From a virus (lineage: Duplodnaviria > Caudoviricetes), in IMG/VR virus record IMGVR_UViG_3300038345_000144: a stretch of 64,000 nt of DNA. The stretch is one strand, 5' to 3'. Every line of letters starts with the position of its first letter. The stretch's first letter is position 1. The position numbers were made by a program, and so were the translations under genes. Shown here one piece after another: positions 3,504 to 19,600 of the stretch. Under the pieces are notes generated by a model that saw only the letters and a list, made by a program, of their open reading frames with translations, did no database searches and was not told the DNA's origin.

Positions 3504-4400
3504 TTATCCTCTCTGTCTGATTTTTTGTACCTCATTAAACATATCGTCAACAGTCATATCGGGCGTATAATCGTACTGGTCCTCGGCTAATGATGATACG
3601 GCAAATTTCTTATTAACTGCGTCAATGAAGAAGGTATATGAGCCTTCATCACCCATATAATTCTCCTGCCACATCTTTTCAGGGATTTTCTCCTGAAGTT
3701 TCAGATGCTCAATAGCGAGGTTATCAAATGAGATTACAGCAAAATTCTGTCTATATTCTGTCAAGATATTTTGTAAATTCTCGATATTTTCCAGAATTTC
3801 TGACTTATGCTCTTCGTAATAATCCCTACCTCTGCCTAAAATCTTATAGCCAAGAATTAAAAGTCGGAGGTTATGGTCGGATAAATTCTTCATATCCTCT
3901 TTGGTAATAACACCGTCAATGCAGTGAATAACCGTATTTTTGAGACCATTATTCCATAAAATATCATCTCTGGAGTTAATCAGGGAGATGCCAACACCAT
4001 AAATGAGTTCTCTATCCTGCCAGTCCTTTAATGTCTGGAGATGGTCTTTGAGATGTCTCTGGTTGATGGTAAGGTTGCAAATTACTCCCTTTTCCTTCAT
4101 TCTCTCTAAAAAAGCCTCCAAGTCAGGATGGGACAAATCGTTCGCATTGAGAGCAATTTCCTGTCCTCTATGGAGAGTATCAAAAAGAGGCTGGCTCAAA
4201 TCAGCGTGTTGACCCTGTTCATTACAGCCTAAATAACAATATTTACAGCCACCGTTACATTTAGTAGTGATGGTTATATCGTTACTTTCTGCAAAGTCAG
4301 GTGTAAGATTATCCAAGTCATTTGCTCTAATCTTCGTACCGTTGCTGAAGAGTGTTACCTCATAATTTCCATTCTTGTAATGTGCTAATAATTTAGGCAT
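3504..4400 (-). CDS. radical SAM domain protein
   Basis: CxxxCxxC motif ITTKCNGGCKYC near the N-terminus; NLTIN and GVGIS barrel-like strands; no C-terminal SPASM cysteines. Confidence 0.9.
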   Translation of the reverse strand: MPKLLAHYKNGNYEVTLFSNGTKIRANDLDNLTPDFAESNDITITTKCNGGCKYCYLGCNEQGQHADLSQPLFDTLHRGQEIALNANDLSHPDLEAFLERMKEKGVICNLTINQRHLKDHLQTLKDWQDRELIYGVGISLINSRDDILWNNGLKNTVIHCIDGVITKEDMKNLSDHNLRLLILGYKILGRGRDYYEEHKSEILENIENLQNILTEYRQNFAVISFDNLAIEHLKLQEKIPEKMWQENYMGDEGSYTFFIDAVNKKFAVSSLAEDQYDYTPDMTVDDMFNEVQKIRQRG

Positions 4401-4418
4401 AATTTCTTATAATTCCTT

Positions 4419-4658
4419 TCAACCTTGTATCTTTTCAAATTCATCTTCTGTATAAATATGTAAGTGTAGTTCTTTTACAATATCCGCATATTCTTTAGAA
4501 TACCCTTCAACTATTCCTTTGTAAATGGGTCCATAAGCCCCCTCTTCAAAATAATAGCAATTTGGACAATGATAGTGTGCTTCTACCACACCCCAACATT
4601 CTTCTGTATATTCTGAATACGGGTTAGATGTACCACATACGGGGCATTTCTTTTCCAT
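4419..4658 (-). CDS. small zinc-ribbon protein
   Basis: CPVC...CPNC; start MEKKCP after GAGGT. Confidence 0.7.
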   Translation of the reverse strand: MEKKCPVCGTSNPYSEYTEECWGVVEAHYHCPNCYYFEEGAYGPIYKGIVEGYSKEYADIVKELHLHIYTEDEFEKIQG

Positions 4659-4659
4659 A

Positions 4660-4932
4660 TTACTTACCTCTATATTTTTCAAACTTTTCGATGTCGAGAG
4701 CATCTTGCAACTCACTAATCAATTCTTCAACATTATACCACCAAATAGTCAACTCACAACGGTCAGAATTACTGCCGTTAGCATATTCTTTGGCTAAACT
4801 GCAAAATCTGACAGGCTTATCGTCAAATTTCACAACTTCTATGGTTGTATATGTTTCGCAGTAATCTCCAATTCCAGGTTCAGCCCCTTCGTGAATAATA
4901 GGTTGTCTTAATTTGATTTTTTCAAGTACCAT
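4660..4932 (-). CDS. hypothetical protein
   Basis: ORF with AGGAGG RBS. Confidence 0.7.
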   Translation of the reverse strand: MVLEKIKLRQPIIHEGAEPGIGDYCETYTTIEVVKFDDKPVRFCSLAKEYANGSNSDRCELTIWWYNVEELISELQDALDIEKFEKYRGK

Positions 4933-4946
4933 ATAAGCCTCCTTGT

Positions 4947-5276
4947 TTAGGTTTCATAGTTTTTCAGACCATTTTCAATCATTTCAGCACGGTATTGCCT
5001 GCCTGTAATCTCTTTTTCATCACGATGAGATATTAGAGGCAAGGTGTCCTCATATACAGCCTCAAGGTCTAAATCCGAGATATGAACATCGTTTGTAGAG
5101 GCAATTCCCCTACCTTCAGGGCTTAATAAGAAAATATTGAGAATATTGTACTCATCACCCTGTATATAGTCACTGTCCTTCAAAAACGCATATTGCTGTC
5201 CTCGTCTTGACTTCATATATGCCTTTTTGCCTGCTGGAAGATTGTATAATTCATCATAAAAAGCCTTTAAGTCCAT
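4947..5276 (-). CDS. hypothetical protein
   Basis: ORF with AGGAG RBS. Confidence 0.7.
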   Translation of the reverse strand: MDLKAFYDELYNLPAGKKAYMKSRRGQQYAFLKDSDYIQGDEYNILNIFLLSPEGRGIASTNDVHISDLDLEAVYEDTLPLISHRDEKEITGRQYRAEMIENGLKNYET

Positions 5277-5290
5277 AAAAATCTCCTTTT

Positions 5291-6544
5291 TTAGTCTTGA
5301 GGTGGGTAGGCAGGGTTTTTAACCGTAATACTTACCTCAAAAGTTCCTTCTAAATCATCATAGGTGCATTTTGTTCCTACAATTTTTAATCCAGTATCTT
5401 TAACACGGTCAACATATACTTGTTCTACTCTGTCAGAAAAATCATCATTTCTATAAGCATAAATATCGCTATCACATATACCATAAATAATATCTTTTAC
5501 GATTTTTTGCTTATCCTCACATCTCCAGAACATCTCTGATAATTGTTGGATAGAATAACAAGGCTTGGGATATACCGTTACTAACGAGTGAGTATCAGTA
5601 TCACAATCAGGCTGACTTATACAAACTATCACAGGACGGTGTGTGATTATACAATCTGGTTTCTCAAAGGTTATATCACAATTACCGTATATATCGTGCC
5701 AAACGCCAAAATTCAAATCAAGCGTAGGTTCATCTGCCATATCAGGGTTTTCTTTGAAAAATTGGCATAAATACTCCTCTAACTCTTTATTAAAGTCCGA
5801 TGCCTCAATAGCGTCTATAATACTATCCCCTAATTTGGTTTCTAAAACATTACGGTCAATTTTTGACTTAACTTCTTGAGCACTTACTCGCCTTTCCCCT
5901 TCAACACTACCCTCGGCATACATTGAAATATCTACTTCCAACCAATTTCTATTGTGTTTATTTCGAGGTAAACATCCGTGAATTGTGTGTGCTATGATAT
6001 TCTGTCCTTTAATATAAGGGTTCATAATGCCCATTTCATATAAGTCACAAACCGCCATAATATTTTTTGTATCAAATAATTTAGGCAGTTTTCTTTTAGC
6101 GTCTGGGTCACATTTTTTGAGTTTGTCTACTTCTGCTGGGGTTAATTCAATACTATGAACGGGAATATCTACCATATTAGATAAAACCTTTGGCGGGTAA
6201 TGCGTATTGTCTGAAAGATATATCTGCTTACCATAACAAATCTGCTGAAGAGTTGTTTGATTTTTGTCTAATACATACCAATAATCTTTCGTTTGAAAAT
6301 ACACATCGTCAAAATGTGGTTCAAAGATTTTATTTTCTACAAAATTAAGGAAAATATGATAATCTGGACTGCCCTCTAATTTGTGGGTATAATCAGGCTG
6401 AAGTTTCTTTATTGCGTCTTCAATTTTCGTTTCTTCATCAGGAAAACGCTTAACCAGCAACCTCAAAAACTCCACATCCTCCTTCGTCTTATCAGGAGCA
6501 GGGGGTTCTGGTATAGTTGATTGTTTAATTTTATCAAAGTCCAT
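5291..6544 (-). CDS. hypothetical protein, GLKI...NP family
   Basis: 417 aa; both termini similar to 38636..39958. Confidence 0.8.
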   Translation of the reverse strand: MDFDKIKQSTIPEPPAPDKTKEDVEFLRLLVKRFPDEETKIEDAIKKLQPDYTHKLEGSPDYHIFLNFVENKIFEPHFDDVYFQTKDYWYVLDKNQTTLQQICYGKQIYLSDNTHYPPKVLSNMVDIPVHSIELTPAEVDKLKKCDPDAKRKLPKLFDTKNIMAVCDLYEMGIMNPYIKGQNIIAHTIHGCLPRNKHNRNWLEVDISMYAEGSVEGERRVSAQEVKSKIDRNVLETKLGDSIIDAIEASDFNKELEEYLCQFFKENPDMADEPTLDLNFGVWHDIYGNCDITFEKPDCIITHRPVIVCISQPDCDTDTHSLVTVYPKPCYSIQQLSEMFWRCEDKQKIVKDIIYGICDSDIYAYRNDDFSDRVEQVYVDRVKDTGLKIVGTKCTYDDLEGTFEVSITVKNPAYPPQD

Positions 6545-6556
6545 AGTAATTACCTC

Positions 6557-6772
6557 TTATTTTATGCTAATAAACACCGTATTATCATTGATGTCAATAT
6601 CGCTTACCTCACGCTCAAACCATTCCTTCTCTTCATCGGAGGCTGGAAAGTTCATCTTCTTCTTGAGTTCGTGAATTCTTCCTGAATAATAGATGTTATT
6701 GCCTATTTCATCTGATAAACAGCAATCCATAAGAACGCTGTGCCATACCTTCAAAAGTGCTTTAAGGGTCAT
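6557..6772 (-). CDS. small hypothetical protein (~70-aa family)
   Basis: MTLxxLL...IYxG...EVxxI pattern shared with 8886, 42898, 52466. Confidence 0.7.
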   Translation of the reverse strand: MTLKALLKVWHSVLMDCCLSDEIGNNIYYSGRIHELKKKMNFPASDEEKEWFEREVSDIDINDNTVFISIK

Positions 6773-6774
6773 AA

Positions 6775-7212
6775 TTAGTCCTCCTCAATTTCATAGTCAG
6801 GATTGCCTCTATAACTCTCTAATTCCCACGGCTCACCATCTTCCCAAGTAAAGTGAAATCTACAATACATTCCAAACAAATAACCATTGAACCAAGTTAG
6901 ATAAGGTCTGCTTTGGTAATAATTGTCCCCCGTGTATTCAGGAATATCAACGGGCTTACCGTCAACAAATACCTTTTGTACTCCCTTATAGCCTAAATAT
7001 GCTAAAAAATCAGACAAGCGACCCTCTTTCTCTGCACTTTGATATTCAAGGGAGGGACCATCCATTTCTTCACCGTCCCAGTCATAATCATCTTCCTTTA
7101 TAGAAGTATCAATTTTGATTACTTTGGGTATGGTATATCCTGCAATTTGAGTTACAAAAGCACAACTGGACGAACTATTTGTCTCAAAAACTTCTCCTCT
7201 AATTTGTATCAT
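6775..7212 (-). CDS. FETNSS-motif protein 1
   Basis: N-terminus MIQIRGEVFETNSSSSC. Confidence 0.85.
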   Translation of the reverse strand: MIQIRGEVFETNSSSSCAFVTQIAGYTIPKVIKIDTSIKEDDYDWDGEEMDGPSLEYQSAEKEGRLSDFLAYLGYKGVQKVFVDGKPVDIPEYTGDNYYQSRPYLTWFNGYLFGMYCRFHFTWEDGEPWELESYRGNPDYEIEED

Positions 7213-7224
7213 ATAGTATTCTCC

Positions 7225-7932
7225 TTAACCAATTTTCACTACCTCAAATTTAGTAGTAGCGTCTTTATCCTGAATTAACTTACTTAATTTTTCAATCATT
7301 TCTACCATTTGATTGCCCTCATCGCCTTCAAAATTAAAGTTTTTCAGGAGCGTACATAATCGCTCTGCTGTCTCAAAGGAACCACCTCGTCTGCATACAT
7401 CGGAGGCAACTAAAATCACAAATAATGTGCCAAAGGATATTTGCTCATCAGATTTTTCTGCTACTATTCTTTGAAGCGTATTGTCAAAATCTATGTAGTC
7501 CATATAGGTATTATAGACATCAATGGCTTTTTTCAAAAAGGAAAAGTTTTCCCCGTGTTCATAGAGTTTTACATAGTCAAAGCACTTTATCCAACAGAAA
7601 AATGCCAGTTCGTAATTCTCTTGAAGTTCACTTATATAACCCTGTGCCATCCATTTTCTCAAATATTCAGGCATCTCTTTAGCGTTAATAATATTCTGGT
7701 AATTATCGGAAAATACATAAGCCCTTACGGTCTCATCTACTTCCGTATTACAAGAATACACAAAATGACATATAGGGCAAATTCCTACTAACTCCAGAAA
7801 TTCGCCCTTATCATCATTATAAATATCCTCGTAGCGGAGGTTTTGTTCCCACTTCCATTTACGAGGTTTTATTGCCTTGTTACAACAAGGACAGAGTGTT
7901 TTATTACCGAAATCAAAACTTACCTTAAACAT
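7225..7932 (-). CDS. zinc ribbon + TPR-like protein (DUF2225-like)
   Basis: CPCC...CPIC, then helical region ending CRRGGSFETA. Confidence 0.55.
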   Translation of the reverse strand: MFKVSFDFGNKTLCPCCNKAIKPRKWKWEQNLRYEDIYNDDKGEFLELVGICPICHFVYSCNTEVDETVRAYVFSDNYQNIINAKEMPEYLRKWMAQGYISELQENYELAFFCWIKCFDYVKLYEHGENFSFLKKAIDVYNTYMDYIDFDNTLQRIVAEKSDEQISFGTLFVILVASDVCRRGGSFETAERLCTLLKNFNFEGDEGNQMVEMIEKLSKLIQDKDATTKFEVVKIG

Positions 7933-7946
7933 AATAAATTCCCTTC

Positions 7947-8417
7947 TTATGTGAGCCTAATGTGGAACGATTTAGCGTCTGGACCGTATTTTTGGGTAAT
8001 ACCCCATTCATAATGGTCGCTCTCACAAAAAGCGATTGACTTTGAGCCAAAGAAGATATTAGCAAAGGTACTGCTACTTCCTGCAATAAATCTACCACTA
8101 AAACCGTTTTCCTGAATATCCTTTACAATTTCCATTACTTTAGGGTCATCACATTTAATGTCCTTTACACCAATAGCATATAAAGAACCGATAATGCGTG
8201 TGATGTAATCCCACTCGTCCTTGAGGCTATCAGCCCACAAATAGTGGACATTAAAGTAATAGTCAATCAGGTTTTTGCCCTTGCCTATTTCAATAAAATC
8301 CTTATCCGTAGGCAGTTCAATGCTTGTAGGAATATTGACTGTATCATTTTCAAAATACACAAACACATTACAGTCAGAACTGTTAGTCTCAAAGGTATTA
8401 CTTCTTATAACAAACAT
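7947..8417 (-). CDS. FETNSS-motif protein 2
   Basis: N-terminus MFVIRSNTFETNSSDC. Confidence 0.85.
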   Translation of the reverse strand: MFVIRSNTFETNSSDCNVFVYFENDTVNIPTSIELPTDKDFIEIGKGKNLIDYYFNVHYLWADSLKDEWDYITRIIGSLYAIGVKDIKCDDPKVMEIVKDIQENGFSGRFIAGSSSTFANIFFGSKSIAFCESDHYEWGITQKYGPDAKSFHIRLT

Positions 8418-8422
8418 ATGGA

Positions 8423-8875
8423 TTAGCCTCCACCTAATAGAATATACGCTATATTTTTATATTCACCTAAATAACCGTCGTGACCATAATAATCTCTATT
8501 TTCGGTTCCAAAAAACAGATTAAGTATGTCAGACTCACCAGCACAATGCCACATACAGCGAGGCTTTGGATAACCTAAATCTCTTTCAGGGTCTCTCTCA
8601 AGTTCCTTTTTCTCGGTCTTGATAGCCTTAATAAAGTCGGTATTTGAGCCATTATAGATGATTTTATCAACACCGTGTCTATATAGCCAGTTGGCTAATT
8701 TTTCGGACTCTTCTGCATCCAGTTCTCTAACAACTTTACGGAAAATATCTCCCGTATCATTATCAGCCGACAAATCAATTGTTTTAGTAAGTGATACCTC
8801 TTGCTCTTTTGGAATAATAAGAGCGTGGCACTCGGAACTATTAGTCTCGAATAATCCATATCTAACATTAAACAT
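8423..8875 (-). CDS. FETNSS-motif protein 3
   Basis: N-terminus MFNVRYGLFETNSSECH. Confidence 0.85.
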   Translation of the reverse strand: MFNVRYGLFETNSSECHALIIPKEQEVSLTKTIDLSADNDTGDIFRKVVRELDAEESEKLANWLYRHGVDKIIYNGSNTDFIKAIKTEKKELERDPERDLGYPKPRCMWHCAGESDILNLFFGTENRDYYGHDGYLGEYKNIAYILLGGG

Positions 8876-8885
8876 AAATATATCC

Positions 8886-9086
8886 TCACTTCAGCATAAT
8901 AATTGTAACGCTGTCATCTGACCTAATTCTATCAACTTCACTCTCAAGGATTTCCGTCTTATCAGGACCATCATAAGTAGCACGAAAATCACAACAATTT
9001 CCCTTATAAACTACTCTTCCGATAGTATCGTGGACAGCAATCTTGTCGTAAGCACTAATTAAAGCAATAACCTGTTCCATTTTCAT
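8886..9086 (-). CDS. small hypothetical protein (~70-aa family)
   Basis: VVYKG...EVDRI pattern; AGGAG RBS. Confidence 0.7.
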   Translation of the reverse strand: MKMEQVIALISAYDKIAVHDTIGRVVYKGNCCDFRATYDGPDKTEILESEVDRIRSDDSVTIIMLK

Positions 9087-9100
9087 AAGCCAAATTCTCC

Positions 9101-9583
9101 TTAATTGCCTTTTTCAATGACATCGTACTTATCGTGGTCATAATCATCTGCATCAGGCGGGTCGTCACTATTATCGTTTCCTGTGTCTACCCAACCACCG
9201 CCAAATAAAAATCTATCTAACAAATTCTCATTGGCAAATAGGTCATTTAACGGGATTTCGTAGCCGTGGTCAATATAACCTGGGTTATTCTCGGCATATT
9301 CCCCGTCGCCCCACGCAGTCCATCTTAATTCTGGGCAGTCAATCTCTTCAACGCCCTTACTCTTGAGATATGCAATAAAGCGTTCAACTTCTTCTCTACC
9401 ACTATCCACGCAGGCTTGATAAATATAATTGATGGTATCACTCTCGGAACCAAATGACCAGCCGTACTCACCACCAGTTAAATGTACCCTTTTCGGGATA
9501 TAGATGTTTGCGTCTTTAGGGATAACTAAACAGTGTACTGAAGAACTGTTAGTTTCGTATAATCCGTATCTAATATTTATCAT
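9101..9583 (-). CDS. FETNSS-motif protein 4
   Basis: N-terminus MINIRYGLYETNSSSVH; also GEYGW, GYIDH and TGNDN motifs. Confidence 0.85.
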   Translation of the reverse strand: MINIRYGLYETNSSSVHCLVIPKDANIYIPKRVHLTGGEYGWSFGSESDTINYIYQACVDSGREEVERFIAYLKSKGVEEIDCPELRWTAWGDGEYAENNPGYIDHGYEIPLNDLFANENLLDRFLFGGGWVDTGNDNSDDPPDADDYDHDKYDVIEKGN

Positions 9584-9589
9584 ATTAAA

Positions 9590-9904
9590 TCACTCCTCAA
9601 AATATGGTTTTTCTCTGTCCTGTAATGTCCACACGACAATTTTCTCAATATGCAGATTTTCAAATCCGCACTGCTTTATATTATCATTAAGTGCCTGCTT
9701 TAGTCCAGAGAAATCGAACTGTGGTTTACCAAAAAGATAAAAAAATCTCTTATTAGCCACATCGTCTTTCCACGCACCGTCATTACGCTCTTCGACAAAG
9801 GTAAGTCCGTGGTCTCTTAAAACCTCATCACAATCAGCGTCGGTCCAATCCATATATTCTATGGAATTGCCCTTAACGAACATAGTAACATCGTACTGTT
9901 TCAT
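9590..9904 (-). CDS. hypothetical protein
   Basis: ORF with RBS; termini weakly resemble 9921..10559. Confidence 0.7.
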   Translation of the reverse strand: MKQYDVTMFVKGNSIEYMDWTDADCDEVLRDHGLTFVEERNDGAWKDDVANKRFFYLFGKPQFDFSGLKQALNDNIKQCGFENLHIEKIVVWTLQDREKPYFEE

Positions 9905-9920
9905 ATCAATTTCTCCTAAC

Positions 9921-10559
9921 TCACTCTATTGGTGCATCAAAATTTATGTTACTGCTATCATATTCTGTAATATCTAATGGCTCGACCTCAACACGGGTAA
10001 TTGTGAGTGTATGATTTCCCAGCGTATTATGAATAAAATCGTTAAGAAAATGCTTCAACTCATCATATTGGCTTTCAGGAATGGGAGGATATATCTTATG
10101 AACCTTTACGCTGTTTTGCCATTCGTAATAATCTTCCAATTCCTCGTCTCCATCACATTCGCAAATACCGTACATCTCGAATTTCTCTTTAGCCCTAACC
10201 GTCTTATCTTCTTCTTTATACTCAAAATCGGTTTCCCAAACCGTATCGAGGTGTCCGTTGATAATTTTATTCATACCATTAGCAAAGTCAGGGTCTAATT
10301 TACCTGCTGTAAAACCTAATCCATAGAAATCCTCTCGCTTAATTTCCAAGAAATCACTCATATCATCTATTAAATTAGTTTTTTCATACAGTAAATCATC
10401 ATCTTGAGAATTGTCAGGAACACTCATAATCTGATTATATTTTTCAATTGAAAAATCAGGATAATAACGACGCTCCCACTCGATAAACTCTTCAAGGACA
10501 AATTCCTGTTTAGCGTACATAATTAAAGTGACAAATAATTGAATTTCGTACTTTCTCAT
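9921..10559 (-). CDS. hypothetical protein
   Basis: 212 aa with AGGAG RBS. Confidence 0.75.
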   Translation of the reverse strand: MRKYEIQLFVTLIMYAKQEFVLEEFIEWERRYYPDFSIEKYNQIMSVPDNSQDDDLLYEKTNLIDDMSDFLEIKREDFYGLGFTAGKLDPDFANGMNKIINGHLDTVWETDFEYKEEDKTVRAKEKFEMYGICECDGDEELEDYYEWQNSVKVHKIYPPIPESQYDELKHFLNDFIHNTLGNHTLTITRVEVEPLDITEYDSSNINFDAPIE

Positions 10560-10571
10560 ATCACTTTCTCC

Positions 10572-11336
10572 TTATTTCTTTCTCTTTAGAACCTCTTGAG
10601 TCATTTTTTCCTGAAGAGCCTCATAATAATCGTCATCAGAGGAATATTCCTGTTCCGCAATCTGCTCTGAAGACTCTTCATAAATCTCATCAAAAGTATC
10701 TAAATCAATGCCCCACTTCTCTCGGAAGGCAGTTTTATACTCCTCCCACTCCTTTTTCCTCTGCTCTTGGGCTTCTGCATCCTTTTTGAGTCTTTCAATC
10801 CATTCAGGCTTAAACTCCTGTTTAGCGAGAGAACACTCTTCCCACGGAATTTCCTCATCAGTGTCACCGTCAAAGACTTTAACGACATAGTTAGGGTCTT
10901 TTGCCATCTGCTGAATACGGTAGCCGTCTAAATAATTGATACCTGTGGGACTATCTTCTATCTCGCTTCCCCAACTCTCCCACTCGGAAAAAGACTCATA
11001 ACCTTCAGCAAAGAAACTCGCCATCAAATCTTCTTTAGCCATATGAGAGTGAAATCCTGTGGCTCTTTCTTTATCTACTGTAACTGGAGCACCATCGACA
11101 AAAATCTCTTCAACTCCATTTTCCAGTAAGAAAGTAAAAAATGAGTTAGTATCATCAAAAGCAACTGCCCAACCATCAATTACATAGCGATAGTAACCGT
11201 CAAGGCGTGAGTCACCTCTTGAGTCAATTTGGACCGTTTTAGGGATTTTTATTGCGTCTGGACGATAACTGATTACACTAAATACGCAAGCACTGGAACT
11301 GTTTGTCTCAAACATACATCGTCTTATCTGTAACAT
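10572..11336 (-). CDS. FETNSS-motif protein 5
   Basis: N-terminus MLQIRRCMFETNSSSAC; charged C-terminal extension. Confidence 0.85.
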   Translation of the reverse strand: MLQIRRCMFETNSSSACVFSVISYRPDAIKIPKTVQIDSRGDSRLDGYYRYVIDGWAVAFDDTNSFFTFLLENGVEEIFVDGAPVTVDKERATGFHSHMAKEDLMASFFAEGYESFSEWESWGSEIEDSPTGINYLDGYRIQQMAKDPNYVVKVFDGDTDEEIPWEECSLAKQEFKPEWIERLKKDAEAQEQRKKEWEEYKTAFREKWGIDLDTFDEIYEESSEQIAEQEYSSDDDYYEALQEKMTQEVLKRKK

Positions 11337-11347
11337 AATGTTTCTCC

Positions 11348-11737
11348 TTATTGCTCTTCTAAATAAAAACTAACTGCTGTGTAATCGTCAACTGATGCTG
11401 TTGTAATATCCGCACAACGAGAAGGCGGGAAGGCTCCAAAGTAGTAAATGGCATATGTACCTACAAGATGGTCAATCATATACTCATCATCATCTTCTAC
11501 ATACTTCTGATACTGCCTTTGCCAGTAACCATCGCTGTCCTGCTTTAACTTCTCAAGAACATCTTTGCCCTTAATGAATGTAACAACACCATCGTCATTC
11601 TTTTTAGCAAAAAGACGCTCTTCAAGTTCCTCATCTTCAGACCTCTTCCAAAGTTTGTAGTCTGGGGTCTTCATAATGATAAGGGAATGAACGCTGGAAC
11701 TATTAGTTTCAAAGATACAATTTCTTATCTGTAACAT
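11348..11737 (-). CDS. FETNSS-motif protein 6 (subfamily B)
   Basis: N-terminus MLQIRNCIFETNSSSVH; full-length similarity to 14876..15238. Confidence 0.85.
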   Translation of the reverse strand: MLQIRNCIFETNSSSVHSLIIMKTPDYKLWKRSEDEELEERLFAKKNDDGVVTFIKGKDVLEKLKQDSDGYWQRQYQKYVEDDDEYMIDHLVGTYAIYYFGAFPPSRCADITTASVDDYTAVSFYLEEQ

Positions 11738-11751
11738 AGTATTTTCTCCTT

Positions 11752-12195
11752 TTAATCAAGAGGCTCAAACGGAGGTTTGGTAAGATAAACTTCTGAACCA
11801 TTAGGCATTTCTCTATACTCTAAATGACCTACCGTAAACCTATCTCCTTCTCTTTTACGCAATTCGTGTGGGAATTGACAAAATAACTTACCGTGAATAC
11901 CATCATTAGCAACGGCTCTTAATTTATGTGAGATGGGGTCATAGACAACTTCAACAACTAATTTGCTATTGTCTAAAGGCTTACCACCCTTAACCTCAAT
12001 TACGATTGCTCGGTTATCACCAACAGTAATATACTTGATTGATTTTTCCAGTAATTCAGGCTCAATGGAGTCTTTTCCCCAGTTATCATACGCTACGGGG
12101 GCAGTATGCCAGTCATTTTCTTCGGTACAGTCATAGACCAAATAGTGACAATTTACATCAAACTCGTTGTTTTCAATAAGTTCTTTTAACTTCAT
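11752..12195 (-). CDS. hypothetical protein
   Basis: 147 aa; N-terminal half resembles the ~70-aa family. Confidence 0.7.
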   Translation of the reverse strand: MKLKELIENNEFDVNCHYLVYDCTEENDWHTAPVAYDNWGKDSIEPELLEKSIKYITVGDNRAIVIEVKGGKPLDNSKLVVEVVYDPISHKLRAVANDGIHGKLFCQFPHELRKREGDRFTVGHLEYREMPNGSEVYLTKPPFEPLD

Positions 12196-12197
12196 AA

Positions 12198-12479
12198 TTA
12201 GCCTCCTAACAAGCCAATGAATACTAAACTATGGACATCAACTCCACCCTCTTTGGTTGCAATAAGCCCTTCAGGGGTTAAGCCCTGATAATCAAACTGG
12301 TAAACATAGCCATAAGAAGTAACTGCAAATACAGGTGAACCTCTATCTGTGGCTGTCAAAAATAATTTAGTATTATCATCACCAAGAATTATTAACCCGT
12401 TAGGGTCGGGAGTTACCATATCAGGCATTAAAGCATTATTCAAAGACAACTTTCCGTAAGCAAATGTACTAAAAGTCAT
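12198..12479 (-). CDS. hypothetical protein
   Basis: ORF with AGGAG RBS. Confidence 0.7.
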   Translation of the reverse strand: MTFSTFAYGKLSLNNALMPDMVTPDPNGLIILGDDNTKLFLTATDRGSPVFAVTSYGYVYQFDYQGLTPEGLIATKEGGVDVHSLVFIGLLGG

Positions 12480-12501
12480 AGTAATTTCTCCTTTTCTTTT
12501 A

Positions 12502-13203
12502 TTATTCGGGTCTTTCTAATGGATTTTTACACGAAAGGTACACAAGAATTCCTGTTTGCTCGAAACTATATTGTGGTTGTGTACTATTCATACCCAGTTC
12601 TATGTTCTTAAGCCCAAATTCCTCTAACCTGTTAATTAAGGCATTGGCTATTTTTTGCGGGTCTACGCATAAGACATAGTTACTGGAATTTTTCTTTGTC
12701 ATAAAGAGTTCGGTTTCCTCAAAATATGGTTCAAATATATCCTTGACGGTCTCATACTTTACGACCTTATTTGTATAACTTGACCTAAAAAAGAACCCAA
12801 AAGTTGGTAATTTTGACAAGTTAATTACATAAAATGTCTGGTCATTACAGATTATCTCTGCTGACAAGGCATAAGGTCGGATTATTGTATGTTCGGTTTT
12901 TGGACCTTTAGGATATATCTCATATTGAGGAAGATTGACCAAGAAACTAAAGCCTAAAGTAGGTCTATATCCCGTGTGCTTTGAGTCGGTAAGCATTTTC
13001 TCGATAAATGTCTGTAAGTCATCATCTGGGATATTATCTATTGCAGATATAAAAGTATTGATAGACTCTGCCACATCTGCATCAAACTGCTTTAGTTTAT
13101 CACTAAAGTCCATTCGGACCTTGTTAAAGTCATCTTGTCTTGCTTTTCTGTCTGCGTTAAAGGAATTTACTTTATGCTGTACTTGGTCAATATTTATTCC
13201 CAT
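12502..13203 (-). CDS. hypothetical protein, GLK...NPL family
   Basis: C-terminus RLEEFGLK...KNPL. Confidence 0.75.
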   Translation of the reverse strand: MGINIDQVQHKVNSFNADRKARQDDFNKVRMDFSDKLKQFDADVAESINTFISAIDNIPDDDLQTFIEKMLTDSKHTGYRPTLGFSFLVNLPQYEIYPKGPKTEHTIIRPYALSAEIICNDQTFYVINLSKLPTFGFFFRSSYTNKVVKYETVKDIFEPYFEETELFMTKKNSSNYVLCVDPQKIANALINRLEEFGLKNIELGMNSTQPQYSFEQTGILVYLSCKNPLERPE

Positions 13204-13214
13204 AAGGGTTCTCC

Positions 13215-13601
13215 TTATTCTTTAAGAATAGCGTAACTATCACTAATCAAATCAATAGCAAAATTACCCCAGTCACCTGTGGCAATCTTGTTTTCTACCT
13301 GATTTACAGTGCCTCTTGCGAACATACCGTTCTTAACACCCTCGTTATAAGGGTGGCACAAGCAAGAGTGGAACAGAACAATCTCCCTGCCCTTGATAAT
13401 TGCTAAAATGTCCTCATCGGTCATCTTCAAAAATCTATTGGTGTCAATGGAGTTATCCTTTTCGTTCAACTCAATACGATGTGCAGGGGCTACTAATGAG
13501 TTATTACACTTGTCGCAACAACCCATTGTGTAGGGTACGATAGGTTCGGGAAAGTTACTAACTTCTGTGAAGGCTTCCCCACAAATATCACAAATCTTCA
13601 T
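13215..13601 (-). CDS. zinc-finger protein with DUF4314-like C-terminus
   Basis: CDIC...CCDKCN; RGTVxxV...WG; start MKICD after AGGAGG. Confidence 0.6.
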   Translation of the reverse strand: MKICDICGEAFTEVSNFPEPIVPYTMGCCDKCNNSLVAPAHRIELNEKDNSIDTNRFLKMTDEDILAIIKGREIVLFHSCLCHPYNEGVKNGMFARGTVNQVENKIATGDWGNFAIDLISDSYAILKE

Positions 13602-13614
13602 AGGCAAATCCTCC

Positions 13615-14622
13615 TTAATCGTTAGTAAATACTGAAATACCGCCCTTACGGTGTGCCGCCAAATAGAAATCGTGGCTGTGGAGGACATAAGTATTACCGC
13701 CTGCTCTCCACCAAATCAAGTCTGTAATCTCTCTGCCGTTATACTCAAGAGGTGGTAACTCTCTTACATTTCTGATAACAACATTACCAGAGTCGGGGTC
13801 AAAGTCTGTTGAGAGGGATTGATTTGTCATATCCAATACATAAGCCTGACGGAAATCGTTGATTTCGATAATCTCGCCTACATAGTGGTCATCAGTATTG
13901 AACATCTCTGCTACTGCCTTTTCCTCGGCTTTCTTGAACTTGATTGTACTTCTCTTGCTCATACCGTCCTTCATCATACCCATCCAGAGGTAGCCAGGTA
14001 TTACATACTGACCGTTTTCGGTATCTCTCTCAAAGCCTAACAAGGAATTAACGCCATCAGTACAAACCTTGATAATACCAAGTCCCTTTGGTCCGATATA
14101 CTTAACAGGAACCTTGATGTCAAATTCGCTGTTATATCCCTTTGGTGATACAGTTACATTGATATAATCGTTGTTAAAGTCCTTCTCACCCTCGTTGTGG
14201 ATAGCATACTCTCTGTAATCAAGAGCGTGTCCGTGTGCATAAGCGTTCTCTTTTGCTGTGGTAATACCAACATAAGACCTGATTGGCTGAATACCCTGCA
14301 ATCTTCCAGCACAATAGTTAACCAAAAGGGCAAAATAAAGGTCATTTGCCGAAATGTCATAACCAAAGCCTGTTCTTTCCATCAACTCGTCCCAGAATGT
14401 AAGGATTGTAGTGATGTCCTCAAACAACTCATCGTCAATCTTGCCTGAAAAGATTTCGTCCATCATAGGACTAACTTCACTCTCCCAGCAATCAACAAGG
14501 TTGTCTAACTGGAATTTAGCAATCTTCGGGTCTCTTGCAAATCTGCTGTAAATTCTGCCGTTGTCCTTATCTCCGTTCATTACACGGGTAAGAGCAACCT
14601 CTACTCCATAATCTTTAATCAT
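13615..14622 (-). CDS. hypothetical protein
   Basis: 335 aa with RBS. Confidence 0.8.
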   Translation of the reverse strand: MIKDYGVEVALTRVMNGDKDNGRIYSRFARDPKIAKFQLDNLVDCWESEVSPMMDEIFSGKIDDELFEDITTILTFWDELMERTGFGYDISANDLYFALLVNYCAGRLQGIQPIRSYVGITTAKENAYAHGHALDYREYAIHNEGEKDFNNDYINVTVSPKGYNSEFDIKVPVKYIGPKGLGIIKVCTDGVNSLLGFERDTENGQYVIPGYLWMGMMKDGMSKRSTIKFKKAEEKAVAEMFNTDDHYVGEIIEINDFRQAYVLDMTNQSLSTDFDPDSGNVVIRNVRELPPLEYNGREITDLIWWRAGGNTYVLHSHDFYLAAHRKGGISVFTND

Positions 14623-14640
14623 AGTGCTTGTATTTCTCCT

Positions 14641-14856
14641 TTATTCGGTAATTCCCCACTTCTTTTCGTACTCTTCGGTAGTCATTTTGCCTTCAAGAAG
14701 TAACTTAATGTCATCATTCTTGTCAGTAAACTTCTGCTTACGCTCCAAGTCTTCCTTTGTGGGCGGGTTTGTTTCTCTGTCGTGCATACGCTGTAATCTA
14801 TCAGCGTCCATCATAAATGCCTTTACATCTTCGGGTAAGTCTTTATACTGTCCCAT
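14641..14856 (-). CDS. hypothetical protein
   Basis: 71 aa; GGAGGT RBS. Confidence 0.7.
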   Translation of the reverse strand: MGQYKDLPEDVKAFMMDADRLQRMHDRETNPPTKEDLERKQKFTDKNDDIKLLLEGKMTTEEYEKKWGITE

Positions 14857-14875
14857 AATTTACCTCCAAAATTAT

Positions 14876-15238
14876 TTAATCTGCATAGTAGAAACTAATT
14901 GCTGTGTAGCCGTTCTTTTCGGCTGTTTCAATATCCATATAGTTAGGTGGATAAGCGTCAAGTTCTCTAATTGCAAAGGAAACAACATCATATTCTTGGT
15001 CAACATACTTTGCCCATCTGTTGTTCTTTTTCATTTTCTCAATGACCTTTTCACCTGAAATGAACTTTACATCGCCACTATCCTTATCAATAGTGTTAAC
15101 CTGCATAAACATCATATCTTTAATTTCGCCACTGTTTCTTGAATTCCACCACTTGTTGTATTCTGCGGTAGAAACAATGACTAAAGTATGTGTGCTTGAA
15201 CTGTTGGTTTCAAAAAGTCCTGCTCTAATCTGGAACAT
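14876..15238 (-). CDS. FETNSS-motif protein 7 (subfamily B)
   Basis: N-terminus MFQIRAGLFETNSSSTH. Confidence 0.85.
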   Translation of the reverse strand: MFQIRAGLFETNSSSTHTLVIVSTAEYNKWWNSRNSGEIKDMMFMQVNTIDKDSGDVKFISGEKVIEKMKKNNRWAKYVDQEYDVVSFAIRELDAYPPNYMDIETAEKNGYTAISFYYAD

Positions 15239-15250
15239 AATAATTCTCCT

Positions 15251-15862
15251 TTATAAAAATGTTTCAAGTTGGTCTAACTTGTTTACTGTACCATCGTCAT
15301 TAAAATCGACTATGGCTAATTGATAAACACAATATACATCGGTCTTCCCTCCGAAAAGGGAGTTTTTTATCGTATAGTGGTTAGGGCTATGAAGGTGTCC
15401 GTGTATAACTGTTTTAGGCTTGTTATCCTTGATATACTGGGAAATTCCTTTTAACCCACAATGAGCGTCGTCTTTATTCGGGTTATATGGACCATCGTGG
15501 CAGAATAAGACATCGGCTTTAGGTAGGCTCTTACAGACTATTATTCCCTCTGGCTGTTCATAGCCAAATGCCTGTGTCGGCTTATATCTATGGGAGCCAT
15601 TCAGTCCCGTATAGTGAAAATTGCCCAATTCCATCAACTTATGGTCGAAATTAGGGATATTTTGTAGGGTATCAGGCATATCGTGGTTGCCATAAAGCCC
15701 GTACATCAGAATATCCTTAAAATGCTCTTTCATCTGATTGACTTCAGCAACATAATGGTCGCCCAACAGGATAACCCTGTCCAAATCCACTAATTTATCC
15801 TTATTTTTCTCATATACACCCCTATATATGCCGTGGGTGTCGGTTATTACTAAAACTCGCAT
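15251..15862 (-). CDS. calcineurin-like metallophosphoesterase
   Basis: DTHG, LGD, GNHD, CHD and HGHLH metal-binding motifs. Confidence 0.9.
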   Translation of the reverse strand: MRVLVITDTHGIYRGVYEKNKDKLVDLDRVILLGDHYVAEVNQMKEHFKDILMYGLYGNHDMPDTLQNIPNFDHKLMELGNFHYTGLNGSHRYKPTQAFGYEQPEGIIVCKSLPKADVLFCHDGPYNPNKDDAHCGLKGISQYIKDNKPKTVIHGHLHSPNHYTIKNSLFGGKTDVYCVYQLAIVDFNDDGTVNKLDQLETFL

Positions 15863-16612: not shown

Positions 16613-19600
16613 TTAAGCAGTTTCTTCAGCACCGTCTTCTCTCTTCTTTTTGAAGATAAAGACCTTCATCATACCAGCCATCATTATGCAGATAATAATG
16701 ACAAATGTTGTGGTTGAAGTGTCCTTGAAGCCCGTAGGACTTGGGACAACTGAACCTGTGATATGGTATGTTTCATTACTGTTATAGTAATACTCTTCAG
16801 GGAGGTCAATACCGTTGAAGGAGATAACCTGACCCTTATTTACGATAAGAGTATTAGGGATAGCAGTATTAACTGTGCAAGGAATACCGATTGTGTAGGA
16901 AGACCTACCAGAAGTAGAACTACCCAACATACCGAACTTGACTGTTAATTTATTGCCATCGACAGTAACCGTAATGTTGTCATAACTGCTCAAAGGCTTA
17001 TCGTTAATCAAGATGTTTGCCTCATCTATTGTTACAGAAGCAGGGAGATTATCAGTAACGATTACATCAGTTAAGTCTGTATTCTCTCTGTTCTCAACCT
17101 TCAATGAGTACAAGAGCATATCGTCCTTGAATACTTCGTGCGGTGCTGTTTCTGTACCACTTTCAGGGTTAGAAGTGAGCGTTACAAGAAGTTCAGGTAA
17201 ATGAATTGTAGCATATGTTGTATTTACGGAAGGAGACTGCTCAACGAATGTTCCGTTCTTCTTCTCATCACGATAGAGAGTAGCGGTATTGTTGACCTGT
17301 GTTTCCTCGAAAATAGCATCTGCCTTCTCATAGATTACGATGTTAAATGCTCTTGCGGAGGAGCCATTACCTAAAATGAACTGCTCGCCGTTGACATCCT
17401 TACTGTAATCTACAACGATACCATAGACCTTCAATCCCGTAGGAATAGTCTTTGTCCAACCGTGCTCTGTGTCAATGTTATCAAAATCAGGTTCAGGGTC
17501 TAATGAGTACCAAACTTCACCCTTTGATGTTGTTGCAGTACCATCAGGCTTGTAACCACCGATTGTAGGAACATAAACGCTCTGGAGTGTACCAGCACCG
17601 TCTAACTTATCCTTGATAACCATATTTGTAGAGATGGTATCTTGGCTCTGACCATAGAAAATCTTGTAAGAATAGTTCTCACCTGGAACGATATTTACAG
17701 TAGAAGAATACTGGTTATTACCACGGGCAACTGAACCAAACAAACCATAAGCCTCTGCCTGTGGAGCGTAGTAATACAATGTTGTTGCCGCAGTTGATAC
17801 ATAGTAATCGTCTCTGTACTGCTCGTACAAGTCAGCATAATACTGTCTGTCCATTCTCATATTTCCATAGTAAGTATAGATGTTGTCATATACCTCGTCC
17901 ATATTAGAAGTATTGACGAAGAACATAGAGATATTACCCTCTGTTCCCAATATGAGAGCGTCTTGGTATGTACGCTGTGTTAAGAACTCTACATATACCT
18001 GTGAGTATTTAATATCGTGCATTGTGACGATAAGCATTGTTCTACCACTATTCTGCCAGTTGTTGACAAACTCGTAGTCATAGAACTCGGTAGAAATTCC
18101 ATAACCGTCCTTACTTGAGTCGTTATTGTTATTACCAATCAAGTAAACGGCTGAAGGGTTAGGTGATGCCTCTGGTAAGAGTACATAGAAAATACCTGAA
18201 CCAATCGGAGTTGTTGGAGTATTTCTGTCAGCGTGGTAGTTTCTTACGCCTGCAAATGCCCAAATACTTGAAACTCTGTTTGTAGGGTCTTCAGTTCTTT
18301 CATTGTTCTTGATACTGGAGTCAATAGACAATGCTGAAGATGGCAACTTGACAAGTTCATACAAGTCCTCAAATGCGTTAGGGTCAGTGTGTGTATGGTT
18401 CAAAACATAGTGCTGTGACTCCATACTTGCCTCGTCAAAGTTGAGGTCCAAATGACAACCAAGTTTAATTACTGTGGAAGCGTTAATATCAAAGTCAGAC
18501 TGTACCTGTGTCTTTACTCTTGCAGAAGACTTTAAGGTAACGAACGGGTCGAGCAATACTCTGATATAGAAGTGTTCAGAAGAGTCTGTAACGAACTTCC
18601 AAGCAATAGTACCTTCAGGGAGATTAACTGTTTGTGCTCTATTACCCCAGTATTCATTCTCGGTAAATAAAATCCAATCAGTATCGCCTGCCCTCTTAAC
18701 ATAGATAGAGTAAGGAATATCGCTTACATAAGTATCTTTTTGCTTTAATGTCCAAGCGACATCTTCATTTGTACTTACATCAGCATCATAAATCTCGATT
18801 GTGAATGTGAGTTTTGAGAACTCATAGTCATTCTCGCCCAAAATTATGTTACCGCAAGCAGGGTTCCACATATTGTAGTCATCGCCTGCACCAGAACTCA
18901 AGTAAACATCACCAATATCCATCCAGAGATTTACATTCTGGTTAACCCAACGGAATGTAGTATTTCCATCTGTATCAGTAAATGATGTCCACGGTGAAGT
19001 GTTCTGATACTTAACTGCCCACTCAAGTCCAGAAACGCCAGAACCATTAAGGATTGCGTTCTGTGAGTGCTTTGTAGGCTCGTAACCAACTCTACCGATT
19101 GTGAAGTTAGCCTCATCTCTCTGATAGAGTGCAAAACGATAATCTACTGCCTCTGCCTCGATGATATGTTCCTCACCATCAAAGATGACTTTAGCGGTAT
19201 TGTGTACGATAGTTCTACCACTATCACCCAACAATGATGTAGGATAACGGCAGAGAACATACATAGCACCGTAACCACTCTTACTATTTACACTATCACA
19301 ATTCTTGTAAGTGCCTTGCTGACCATATCCAACAACTTCACCCTCGCAGTCGTCAACGACATAGAGAGCCATTGAAGAGTAGTCAGATGAAGGGCAATAG
19401 AAAGATGTAGAATAAGTCCATAATACATAGAAGTAGTCATCAGAGTCTTCAGGTCTTGAACCCCAACTATTCTGCCATACAGTATAAGAAGTACCTGTAC
19501 CTCTTGTAGATGAATAGGAGTTACCGCTTCTTGGAGCAACTCTTACATTCATTTCATAAGACTTCTGTGTATCAAACTCACCATCGTTATCAGTATCAAT

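Follow-up and report, generated by a model that had tools for sequence, protein, structure and literature searches.

A radical SAM enzyme family linked in phages to proteins with a common N-terminal tag: a proposed protein maturation system

The 64,000-nucleotide stretch of DNA analyzed here (the window; IMG/VR virus record IMGVR_UViG_3300038345_000144, Duplodnaviria, Caudoviricetes) encodes, on its minus strand, a radical S-adenosylmethionine (SAM) enzyme and seven small proteins whose N-termini carry the same short motif, hereafter the tag. Comparison with other phage loci firmly established the genomic linkage of the enzyme family and the tag. Our proposal for the function of the pair, which has partial support, is that the tagged proteins are substrates of the enzyme and that radical chemistry at the tag matures them. 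Two kinds of tagged protein, designated type A and type B, are distinguished in the following list of the eight genes, in which column numbers and probabilities are those of hhalign comparisons with type A.

3504-4400, minus strand: radical SAM enzyme, 298 residues, PHROG 16999 family (score 3e-37)
6775-7212, minus strand: tagged protein, 145 residues; N-terminal half like type A (93 columns, probability 97.4%)
7947-8417, minus strand: tagged protein, 156 residues; tag reading ..ETNSSD; 38 columns aligned to type A, probability 95.5%
8423-8875, minus strand: tagged protein, 150 residues; N-terminal half like type A (82 columns, probability 98.3%)
9101-9583, minus strand: tagged protein of type A, the conserved core partner, 160 residues; GW, YIDH, and GNDN motifs and a C-terminal KGN
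10572-11336, minus strand: tagged protein, 254 residues; N-terminal half type-A-like (82 columns, probability 96.7%)
11348-11737, minus strand: tagged protein of type B, 129 residues; sister of 14876-15238
14876-15238, minus strand: tagged protein of type B, a divergent member, 120 residues; C-terminal strand ..TAISFYYAD; aligns with the type-B family

Conservation of the tag and its linkage to the enzyme

The initial annotation of the window had described seven minus-strand open reading frames (ORFs) beginning M-x-x-[IV]-R-x-x-x-[FY]-E-T-N-S-S, and all seven were recovered. ETNSS occupied residues 10 to 14 in each of them (7/7), with the arginine at residue 5 and the phenylalanine or tyrosine at residue 9. 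A six-frame scan located the motif in the 64 kb at these seven N-termini only, and all seven ORFs have an ATG start with a GGAG-type ribosome site ahead of it. The codons for E10, T11, N12, and S14 varied synonymously among the seven copies, indicating selection at the level of the protein rather than of a DNA or RNA element.

The same annotation had suggested examining whether the tag co-occurs with this radical SAM family, and the association proved strong in both directions. An enzyme alignment was used to search IMG/VR and provided a first set of 80 loci, which were kept with 10-kb flanks (1.54 Mb in total). In 79 of the 80 contigs, one to six tagged ORFs were present on the strand of the enzyme, usually within 1.5 kb, and most of them abutted the enzyme gene directly upstream or downstream. 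The sole locus lacking a tagged ORF was on a contig cut approximately 780 nucleotides upstream of the enzyme. The six-residue motif occurred 180 times on the enzyme strand of the 1.54 Mb and was absent from the other strand (0 copies), with 178 of the 180 copies located 8 to 10 residues after a methionine. The reverse search, seeded on the tag alone, afforded 79 new contigs. In 73 of them, a gene of the enzyme family lay no more than 10 kb away and in the same orientation. Of the six contigs without it, at least two are truncated: L143 stops 0.9 kb past the tag used as seed, and L150 stops before the position occupied by the enzyme gene in its sibling contig (L151); a further exception (L087) has only 2.6 kb of downstream sequence. 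Clustering of the ORFs from 83 compared loci recovered the enzyme in 83 and the tag family in 82, the next commonest gene family being present in 25. When the gene groups of these loci were ranked by how widespread they are, the first 30 contained no genes of the window other than those of the enzyme and the tag family.

The consensus of the tag is M-(K)-x-Q-I-R-x-G-V-F-E-T-N-S-S-S-x-H. Over 182 tags, the arginine was invariant, the spacing between methionine and phenylalanine was 8 or 9 residues in 180, and the serines were followed by histidine in 93%; the glutamate, at position 10-11, was also invariant. A profile restricted to the tag retrieved 7,444 clusters (50% identity) out of 1.84 billion proteins, and the match began at residue 1 in almost all of the 150 matches listed. 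The best matches of this profile that contain two tags are the metagenome proteins P0237 and P0238, in each of which a single gene call covers two tandem tagged proteins, the second, internal tag still being preceded by a methionine. These two proteins were considered as cases of a tag fused to another domain and rejected as such, since both halves are tagged proteins; they represent genuine A-B fusions or, alternatively, gene calls that read through from one gene into the next.

The pair is carried by large phages of hosts as diverse as gut Bacteroidota (Lak), cyanobacteria, Thermus, and enterobacteria. In Prevotella Lak megaphages, five tagged genes in tandem follow the enzyme gene, and Microcystis phage Ma-LMM01 and its relatives carry the pair as gp128 and gp130. 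In Thermus phage phiYS40 the pair corresponds to YS40_162 and YS40_161, with a degenerate tag (..M-T-N-S-S-S). In Salmonella phage Arash, gp146c (L083:3491-4921) is a protein of 476 residues in which a type-A domain is fused ahead of the enzyme and the tag is kept at the extreme N-terminus; close relatives of this fusion were not found in IMG/VR. The public label of gp146c, "methyltransferase," is probably wrong, this protein matching Pfam Radical_SAM at 1.9e-13. Vibrio phage D479 has a tag of the form aromatic-x-[TS]-N-S-S-S beside a radical SAM-like gene, the product of which aligned with the enzyme family of the window over 80 columns only. Among 185,579 species genomes, detection of the enzyme was limited to approximately 50 contigs of metagenome-assembled genomes, and none of the isolates (0) had a full-length gene. 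This distribution is consistent with a system that is phage-borne and nearly confined to phages. The window itself most likely derives from a very large phage, represented by a single sequence of >326 kb; G+C content was 36 to 39% across its run of small minus-strand genes.

The enzyme and its tagged partners

The initial annotation had recognized a CxxxCxxC radical SAM gene devoid of a SPASM domain, and this description was borne out. The C-x3-C-x2-C motif is formed by C48, C52, and C55, which were invariant in alignments of 15 and of 25 homologues. The sole further conserved cysteine was C59; neither alignment contained a conserved cysteine beyond it, and the motif of SPASM/twitch auxiliary clusters was absent. 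The enzyme family is large (5,145 clusters at 90% identity), and its members in phiYS40 and Arash scored above the cut-off of Pfam Radical_SAM (46.6 bits for the phiYS40 homologue and 51.4 bits for the Arash fusion). The phiYS40 enzyme is a full-length homologue of that of the window (hhalign probability 99.3%, 238 columns). The search of PDB sequences with the enzyme profile returned nothing significant.

The AlphaFold2 model of the enzyme (predicted local distance difference test [pLDDT] score of 92.9) matched the partial TIM-barrel fold of solved radical SAM enzymes and carries in addition a three-stranded N-terminal domain of 38 residues. In an exhaustive structure search, the highest Z scores were obtained for SkfB (17.4, with 267 aligned residues and a root mean square deviation of 4.0), SuiB (16.7), and EpeE (15.8), followed by viperin (15.6), BlsE (15.2), ChlB (14.1), PqqE (13.8), and anSMEcpe (13.2), and then by MoaA (12.9), PflA (10.0), and QueE (8.3). 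Foldseek ranked CteB, SkfB, and SuiB at the top. On the basis of this model, the enzyme appears closest to radical SAM enzymes that modify peptides. The alignments with SkfB and SuiB spanned the model from its first residues to residue 298, indicating that the region of the auxiliary clusters is present and that its cysteines are gone. No PqqD-like domain or RiPP recognition element (RRE; RiPP, ribosomally synthesized and post-translationally modified peptide) was detected in the enzyme by Pfam or NCBIfam searches, which covered the 38-residue N-terminal domain only as part of the whole protein.

The position of the GGE motif, which binds the amino group of SAM, distinguishes two kinds of enzyme. 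It reads NAND in the window and NGND, GGNP, or GGDP in the rest of the clade, the glutamate being replaced by aspartate or asparagine, whereas the phiYS40 and Arash enzymes retain GGGEP. The tags may covary with the enzyme. A glutamate preceded T/S-N-S-S in all 419 of 419 tags from the clade with aspartate or asparagine in the enzyme motif, and the tags of Arash and phiYS40 (L084:2015-4032), whose enzymes have GGGEP, contain alanine or methionine at the position of the glutamate. Such a covariation would be compatible with a tail extending to the SAM site.

The seven bodies, that is, the proteins minus their first ~23 residues, fell into five BLAST groups, one of which contained the products of 6775-7212 and 10572-11336, that of 8423-8875 being a singleton. 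Profile comparison upheld the subfamilies A and B that had been delineated previously. The proteins encoded at 6775, 8423, and 10572 had their first 82 to 93 columns in common with type A (9101), and the part common to 9101 and its relatives comprises, besides the tag, two or three strands and a helix that terminates in G-V. The C-terminal half of 10572-11336 is an acidic, lysine-rich helical extension. Type B (11348 and 14876) had only 27 N-terminal columns in common with type A, and a module of ~26 N-terminal residues unites all seven proteins. Their designation as paralogs in the initial annotation was therefore correct only in part: five of the proteins are alike over up to ~90 residues, and type B resembles type A in 27 columns only.

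The type-A and type-B body groups were present in 122 and 130 of the fetched loci, respectively, and the group of 7947-8417 in 4. Since types A and B are the widespread ones, the canonical module consists of A, B, and the enzyme, and the other tagged bodies are lineage-specific. The operon of these three genes is constant, with overlapping or closely spaced genes, and the gene immediately upstream of the enzyme is in most cases that of type B. The partner proteins range from 96 to 260 residues. When 40 diverse tagged proteins of other phages were compared with Pfam, none was assigned to a family, and Pfam and NCBIfam searches gave nothing significant for the seven tagged proteins of the window. 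PADLOC returned no match among six of the seven, 11348-11737 being left out. PHROG matched the tagged proteins of the window to the function-less phrog_28997 only, and megablast with the region as query found nothing among phage records. Because types A and B share only 27 columns and the 40 tagged proteins have no Pfam family, the conserved part is the tag and not the body.

Type A comprised 115 homologue clusters and, outside the tag, had a set of invariant polar residues (G-W, Y, Y-I-D-H, G-N-D-N, and the C-terminal K-G-N). The AlphaFold2 model of the protein of the window had a pLDDT of 90, with values below 50 for residues 1 to 11 and an average above 90 for the remainder; the first strand is formed by residues 15 to 22. 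In this model, residues 1 to 11 fit a flexible tail. The initial annotation had named a merely buried structural strand as an outcome that would speak against its proposal; the motif was not simply such a strand, because the first 11 residues of the tag were not modelled within the fold. Comparison of the type-A model with the PDB by Foldseek gave no match at an E value of ≤0.001, and a wide exhaustive fold search likewise gave no PDB match (best Z score, 2.3). In the ESM Atlas, the model retrieved only viral clusters without names, together with one Tad2-like cluster of 261 residues (TM score of 0.56). Longer, fused relatives of type A were not found in a set of 5.8 billion proteins.

A proposed maturation reaction and its alternatives

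We propose that co-encoded whole proteins are matured by the radical SAM enzyme through its action on their free N-terminal tails, a reading to which we assign a probability of about 0.5. It is based on the presence of a fixed N-terminal tag on differing bodies, the two-way linkage, the Arash fusion, the peptide-modifying structural relatives of the enzyme, and the unmodelled tail. The phages would possess a dedicated two-part system composed of the tagged proteins and of a radical SAM enzyme that lacks auxiliary clusters and would recognize their tails. Hydrogen abstraction would start a radical reaction somewhere in F-E-T-N-S-S-S, and this reaction would mature or activate the tagged protein. 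The core clients would be type A (9101-9583) and type B (11348-11737 and 14876-15238), and the remaining four proteins of the window would be additional clients, specific to the lineage and descended from type A. We infer that the enzyme touches the tag, and likewise the covalent outcome and the role of the matured proteins. The absence of auxiliary clusters generally points away from a two-electron oxidation of the anSME type. For this reason, a redox-neutral outcome, such as epimerization, a stable or stored protein radical, or radical-driven cleavage, is favored over a two-electron oxidation. A more specific version, in which the tail threads into the radical SAM site, the glutamate of the tag stands in for the lost glutamate of GGE, SAM is cleaved only when a client is bound, and a stable radical or a protein-derived cofactor is left behind, is in our estimation unlikely. 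If true, it would make of >7,000 clusters of phage proteins a previously unknown class of radical-activated proteins.

Several observations weigh against the maturation of tagged clients. The enzyme of the window scored 13.7 bits against Pfam Radical_SAM (PF04055), below the cut-off of 29.5, and lacks the canonical GGE. Viperin and BlsE, which act on small molecules, were less than 2 Z units behind the peptide-modifying enzymes in the structure search. The covariation of the tag glutamate with the enzyme involves two or three independent lineages only. The nearest tagged gene of the window lies 2.4 kb from the enzyme gene, the intervening segment being occupied by the following genes.

4419-6772, minus strand: five untagged ORFs between the enzyme gene and the nearest tagged gene, with no significant Pfam family

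These ORFs are probably outside the system, since they do not belong to the widespread gene groups and since most loci have tagged genes abutting the enzyme gene. Judging from its own invariant polar residues, type A may itself be an enzyme. Finally, the Arash fusion and the constant operon of A, B, and the enzyme equally fit a multi-subunit enzyme. The suggestion of a maturase with its substrates, made in the initial annotation, was thus sustained with respect to a maturase-like enzyme with protein partners, which the linkage, the fusion, and the resemblance of the enzyme model to peptide-modifying enzymes support; it was not sustained to the exclusion of subunits, which the fusion fits too. 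Neither the autoprocessing of the Ntn or pyruvoyl kind nor the loss of a leader that the same annotation had envisaged gained support. Prediction of a complex between the enzyme and type A, with alignments as input, gave scores of 0.77, 0.21, and 0.19, the median being under the mark, and was not used either way.

The tagged proteins may instead be interchangeable subunits or adaptors of the enzyme, a possibility that we regard as less likely than maturation. The tail would dock in the enzyme, where Glu10 would perhaps complete the SAM site, and the bodies would bring a nucleic acid (e.g., tRNA) or a small molecule. Apart from the fusion and the tight, sometimes overlapping arrangement of the three genes, this explanation would account for the conserved polar residues of type A, which are typical of a binding or active site, and for the covariation of the tag glutamate with the glutamate lost from GGE. 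It also finds an echo in the neighborhood of the pair, which in a minority of loci includes RNA-repair genes (kinase-HD in 25 of the 83 loci, Thg1-like in 15 of the 83, and a T4-type RNA ligase in L007), and in the ProQ-like gene located between the partners in Ma-LMM01. These RNA-repair genes are missing from most loci and from the window, no nucleic-acid-binding or other known domain was recognizable in the tagged bodies, and a single enzyme accompanied by as many as six or seven divergent tagged proteins is rather what would be expected of clients than of subunits. A role in RNA repair, to which the Thg1, RNA ligase, and kinase-HD neighbors might have pointed, was not adopted, owing to the absence of these genes from most loci and from the window.

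Two further explanations would reduce the enzyme to a neighbor or to an accessory. The internal proteins of phage T4 have an N-terminal capsid-targeting sequence of ~10 residues that ends in glutamate and is removed by the prohead protease. The tag resembles this sequence, being strictly N-terminal, of fixed length, with an invariant glutamate at position 10-11, and present on many divergent small proteins, and it could accordingly be read as a sorting or processing signal, for example for capsid targeting with a cut after the glutamate. We consider this improbable, as it leaves unexplained both the near-obligate two-way linkage to the enzyme across unrelated phages and the Arash fusion; moreover, no head or protease gene was among the genes common to the 83 loci, and the invariant N-S-S-S-x-H falls after the supposed cut and runs into the first strand. 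The invariant Asn-Ser-Ser could alternatively be a self-processing site, with cleavage between asparagine and serine or formation of an N-terminal nucleophile or of a pyruvoyl group, the enzyme at most assisting. A serine after the scissile bond is typical of pyruvoyl and N-terminal nucleophile enzymes. Self-processing nevertheless seems very improbable to us, since Pfam, NCBIfam, and PDB fold searches detected no known self-processing family, since the known cases need the surrounding fold whereas the bodies differ here, and since it has no role for a radical SAM enzyme that is nearly always present.

Neighboring genes and relation to known systems

Other genes in the vicinity of the pair were recorded. 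In the window, a small ORF with a zinc-ribbon-like C-x2-C ... C-x2-C arrangement (4419-4715, minus strand) lies immediately upstream of the radical SAM gene; it was not represented in the gene groups that were widespread in the other loci. The gene that directly precedes the outermost tagged gene on its upstream side (15251-15862, minus strand) encodes a calcineurin-like metallophosphoesterase (Pfam Metallophos_2, 5e-10). Farther upstream, an ORF of 2339 residues (16613-23632, minus strand) encodes a giant surface-type protein in what resembles a megaphage genome; the protein begins with a signal-like segment, ends in a hydrophobic anchor, and also contains a long low-complexity stretch of acidic character and repeat-rich middle parts. 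In another locus (L007:5154-11730), the pair is located within an RNA-repair-like block comprising a T4-type RNA ligase, an AAA_33 kinase-HD protein, and a Thg1-like tRNA-His guanylyltransferase. In Ma-LMM01, the product of the gene between gp130 and gp128, gp129 (L001:6538-6876), matched "Phage ProQ C-terminal-like" (Pfam, 7e-15), and gp131, annotated as a histidyl-tRNA synthetase, did not match any Pfam family. Approximately nine related loci (L026, L050, and their relatives) contain, 2 to 3 kb upstream of the pair, a second small radical SAM-like gene (C-x-C-x-C-x2-C) and, at the same distance, an adenylosuccinate-synthase-like gene.

The SPASM/twitch maturases of RiPPs (SkfB, SuiB, CteB, and EpeE) ranked highest in the structural comparisons with the enzyme model, and they resemble the phage system also in the association of one enzyme with several genes that have a common N-terminal recognition stretch. 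In contrast to these maturases, the phage enzyme lacks the cysteines of the auxiliary clusters and any RRE detectable by Pfam. The partners differ in turn from RiPP precursors, since they are proteins of 96 to 260 residues, the one that was modelled being folded (pLDDT of 90), rather than short peptides; in place of a leader and a core, they have a fixed tag of 14 to 17 residues at the very N-terminus. Radical SAM/SPASM enzymes associated with FxSxx peptides have been described in other systems and do not involve the present tag (Kaur et al. 2020; PMC7159879). Our literature search did not find any paper on the tag or on the present enzyme family.

Precedents for the modification of whole proteins are provided by three other systems. 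In the HXS antiphage system, the radical SAM enzymes HxsB and HxsC, together with HxsD, mature the whole protein HxsA, which undergoes a +8 Da change mapped to SHRSS in addition to N-terminal processing (PMC13128918). HXS is thereby a precedent for radical SAM-dependent maturation of a whole protein at a motif rich in serine and histidine. It differs in being a bacterial defense system with two radical SAM enzymes and the small HxsD, internal HxS repeats, and a product exported to the periplasm, whereas the phage system has a single cluster-poor enzyme and an N-terminal tag, with no HxS repeats in the seven proteins. The anSME and AtsB enzymes are comparable in acting on a serine in a short motif of whole proteins, the sulfatases, and anSMEcpe was among the structural matches; they contain two auxiliary SPASM clusters and recognize the target C/S-x-P/A-x-R, neither of which is present in the phage system. 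Glycyl-radical activases (PflA and NrdG) are likewise small, devoid of auxiliary clusters, and dedicated to a whole-protein partner, and the match of the fused Arash enzyme to Pfam Fer4_12 was counted as a further likeness. The Z score of 10.0 for PflA only and the N-terminal location of the conserved site in the phage proteins set these activases apart. The R-V-x-G-[FY] glycine loop was absent from the tagged proteins, whose C-termini read ..KGN, ..AFGYYGHD, and ..TAISFYYAD, and the type-B proteins of the window lack the glycine. Together, these comparisons place the phage system closest to SkfB and SuiB in fold and closest to anSME-sulfatase, glycyl-radical activases, and HXS in logic. It belongs to none of them, as the SPASM cysteines, the RRE, the target motifs, the glycine loop, and the HxS repeats that were tested are absent.

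Both partner families are very large and without assigned function, and the occurrence of the pair in three cultured phages (Ma-LMM01, phiYS40, and Arash) makes the question directly testable. If the enzyme modifies the tag, phages would have a widespread route for the post-translational maturation of whole proteins, based on a short, portable N-terminal recognition tag and on a radical SAM enzyme stripped of its auxiliary clusters. Such a system would offer a new reaction, a possible handle for protein engineering, and an entry to thousands of phage "hypothetical proteins." Our analysis points to an undescribed form of radical SAM-dependent protein maturation that is essentially phage-specific.

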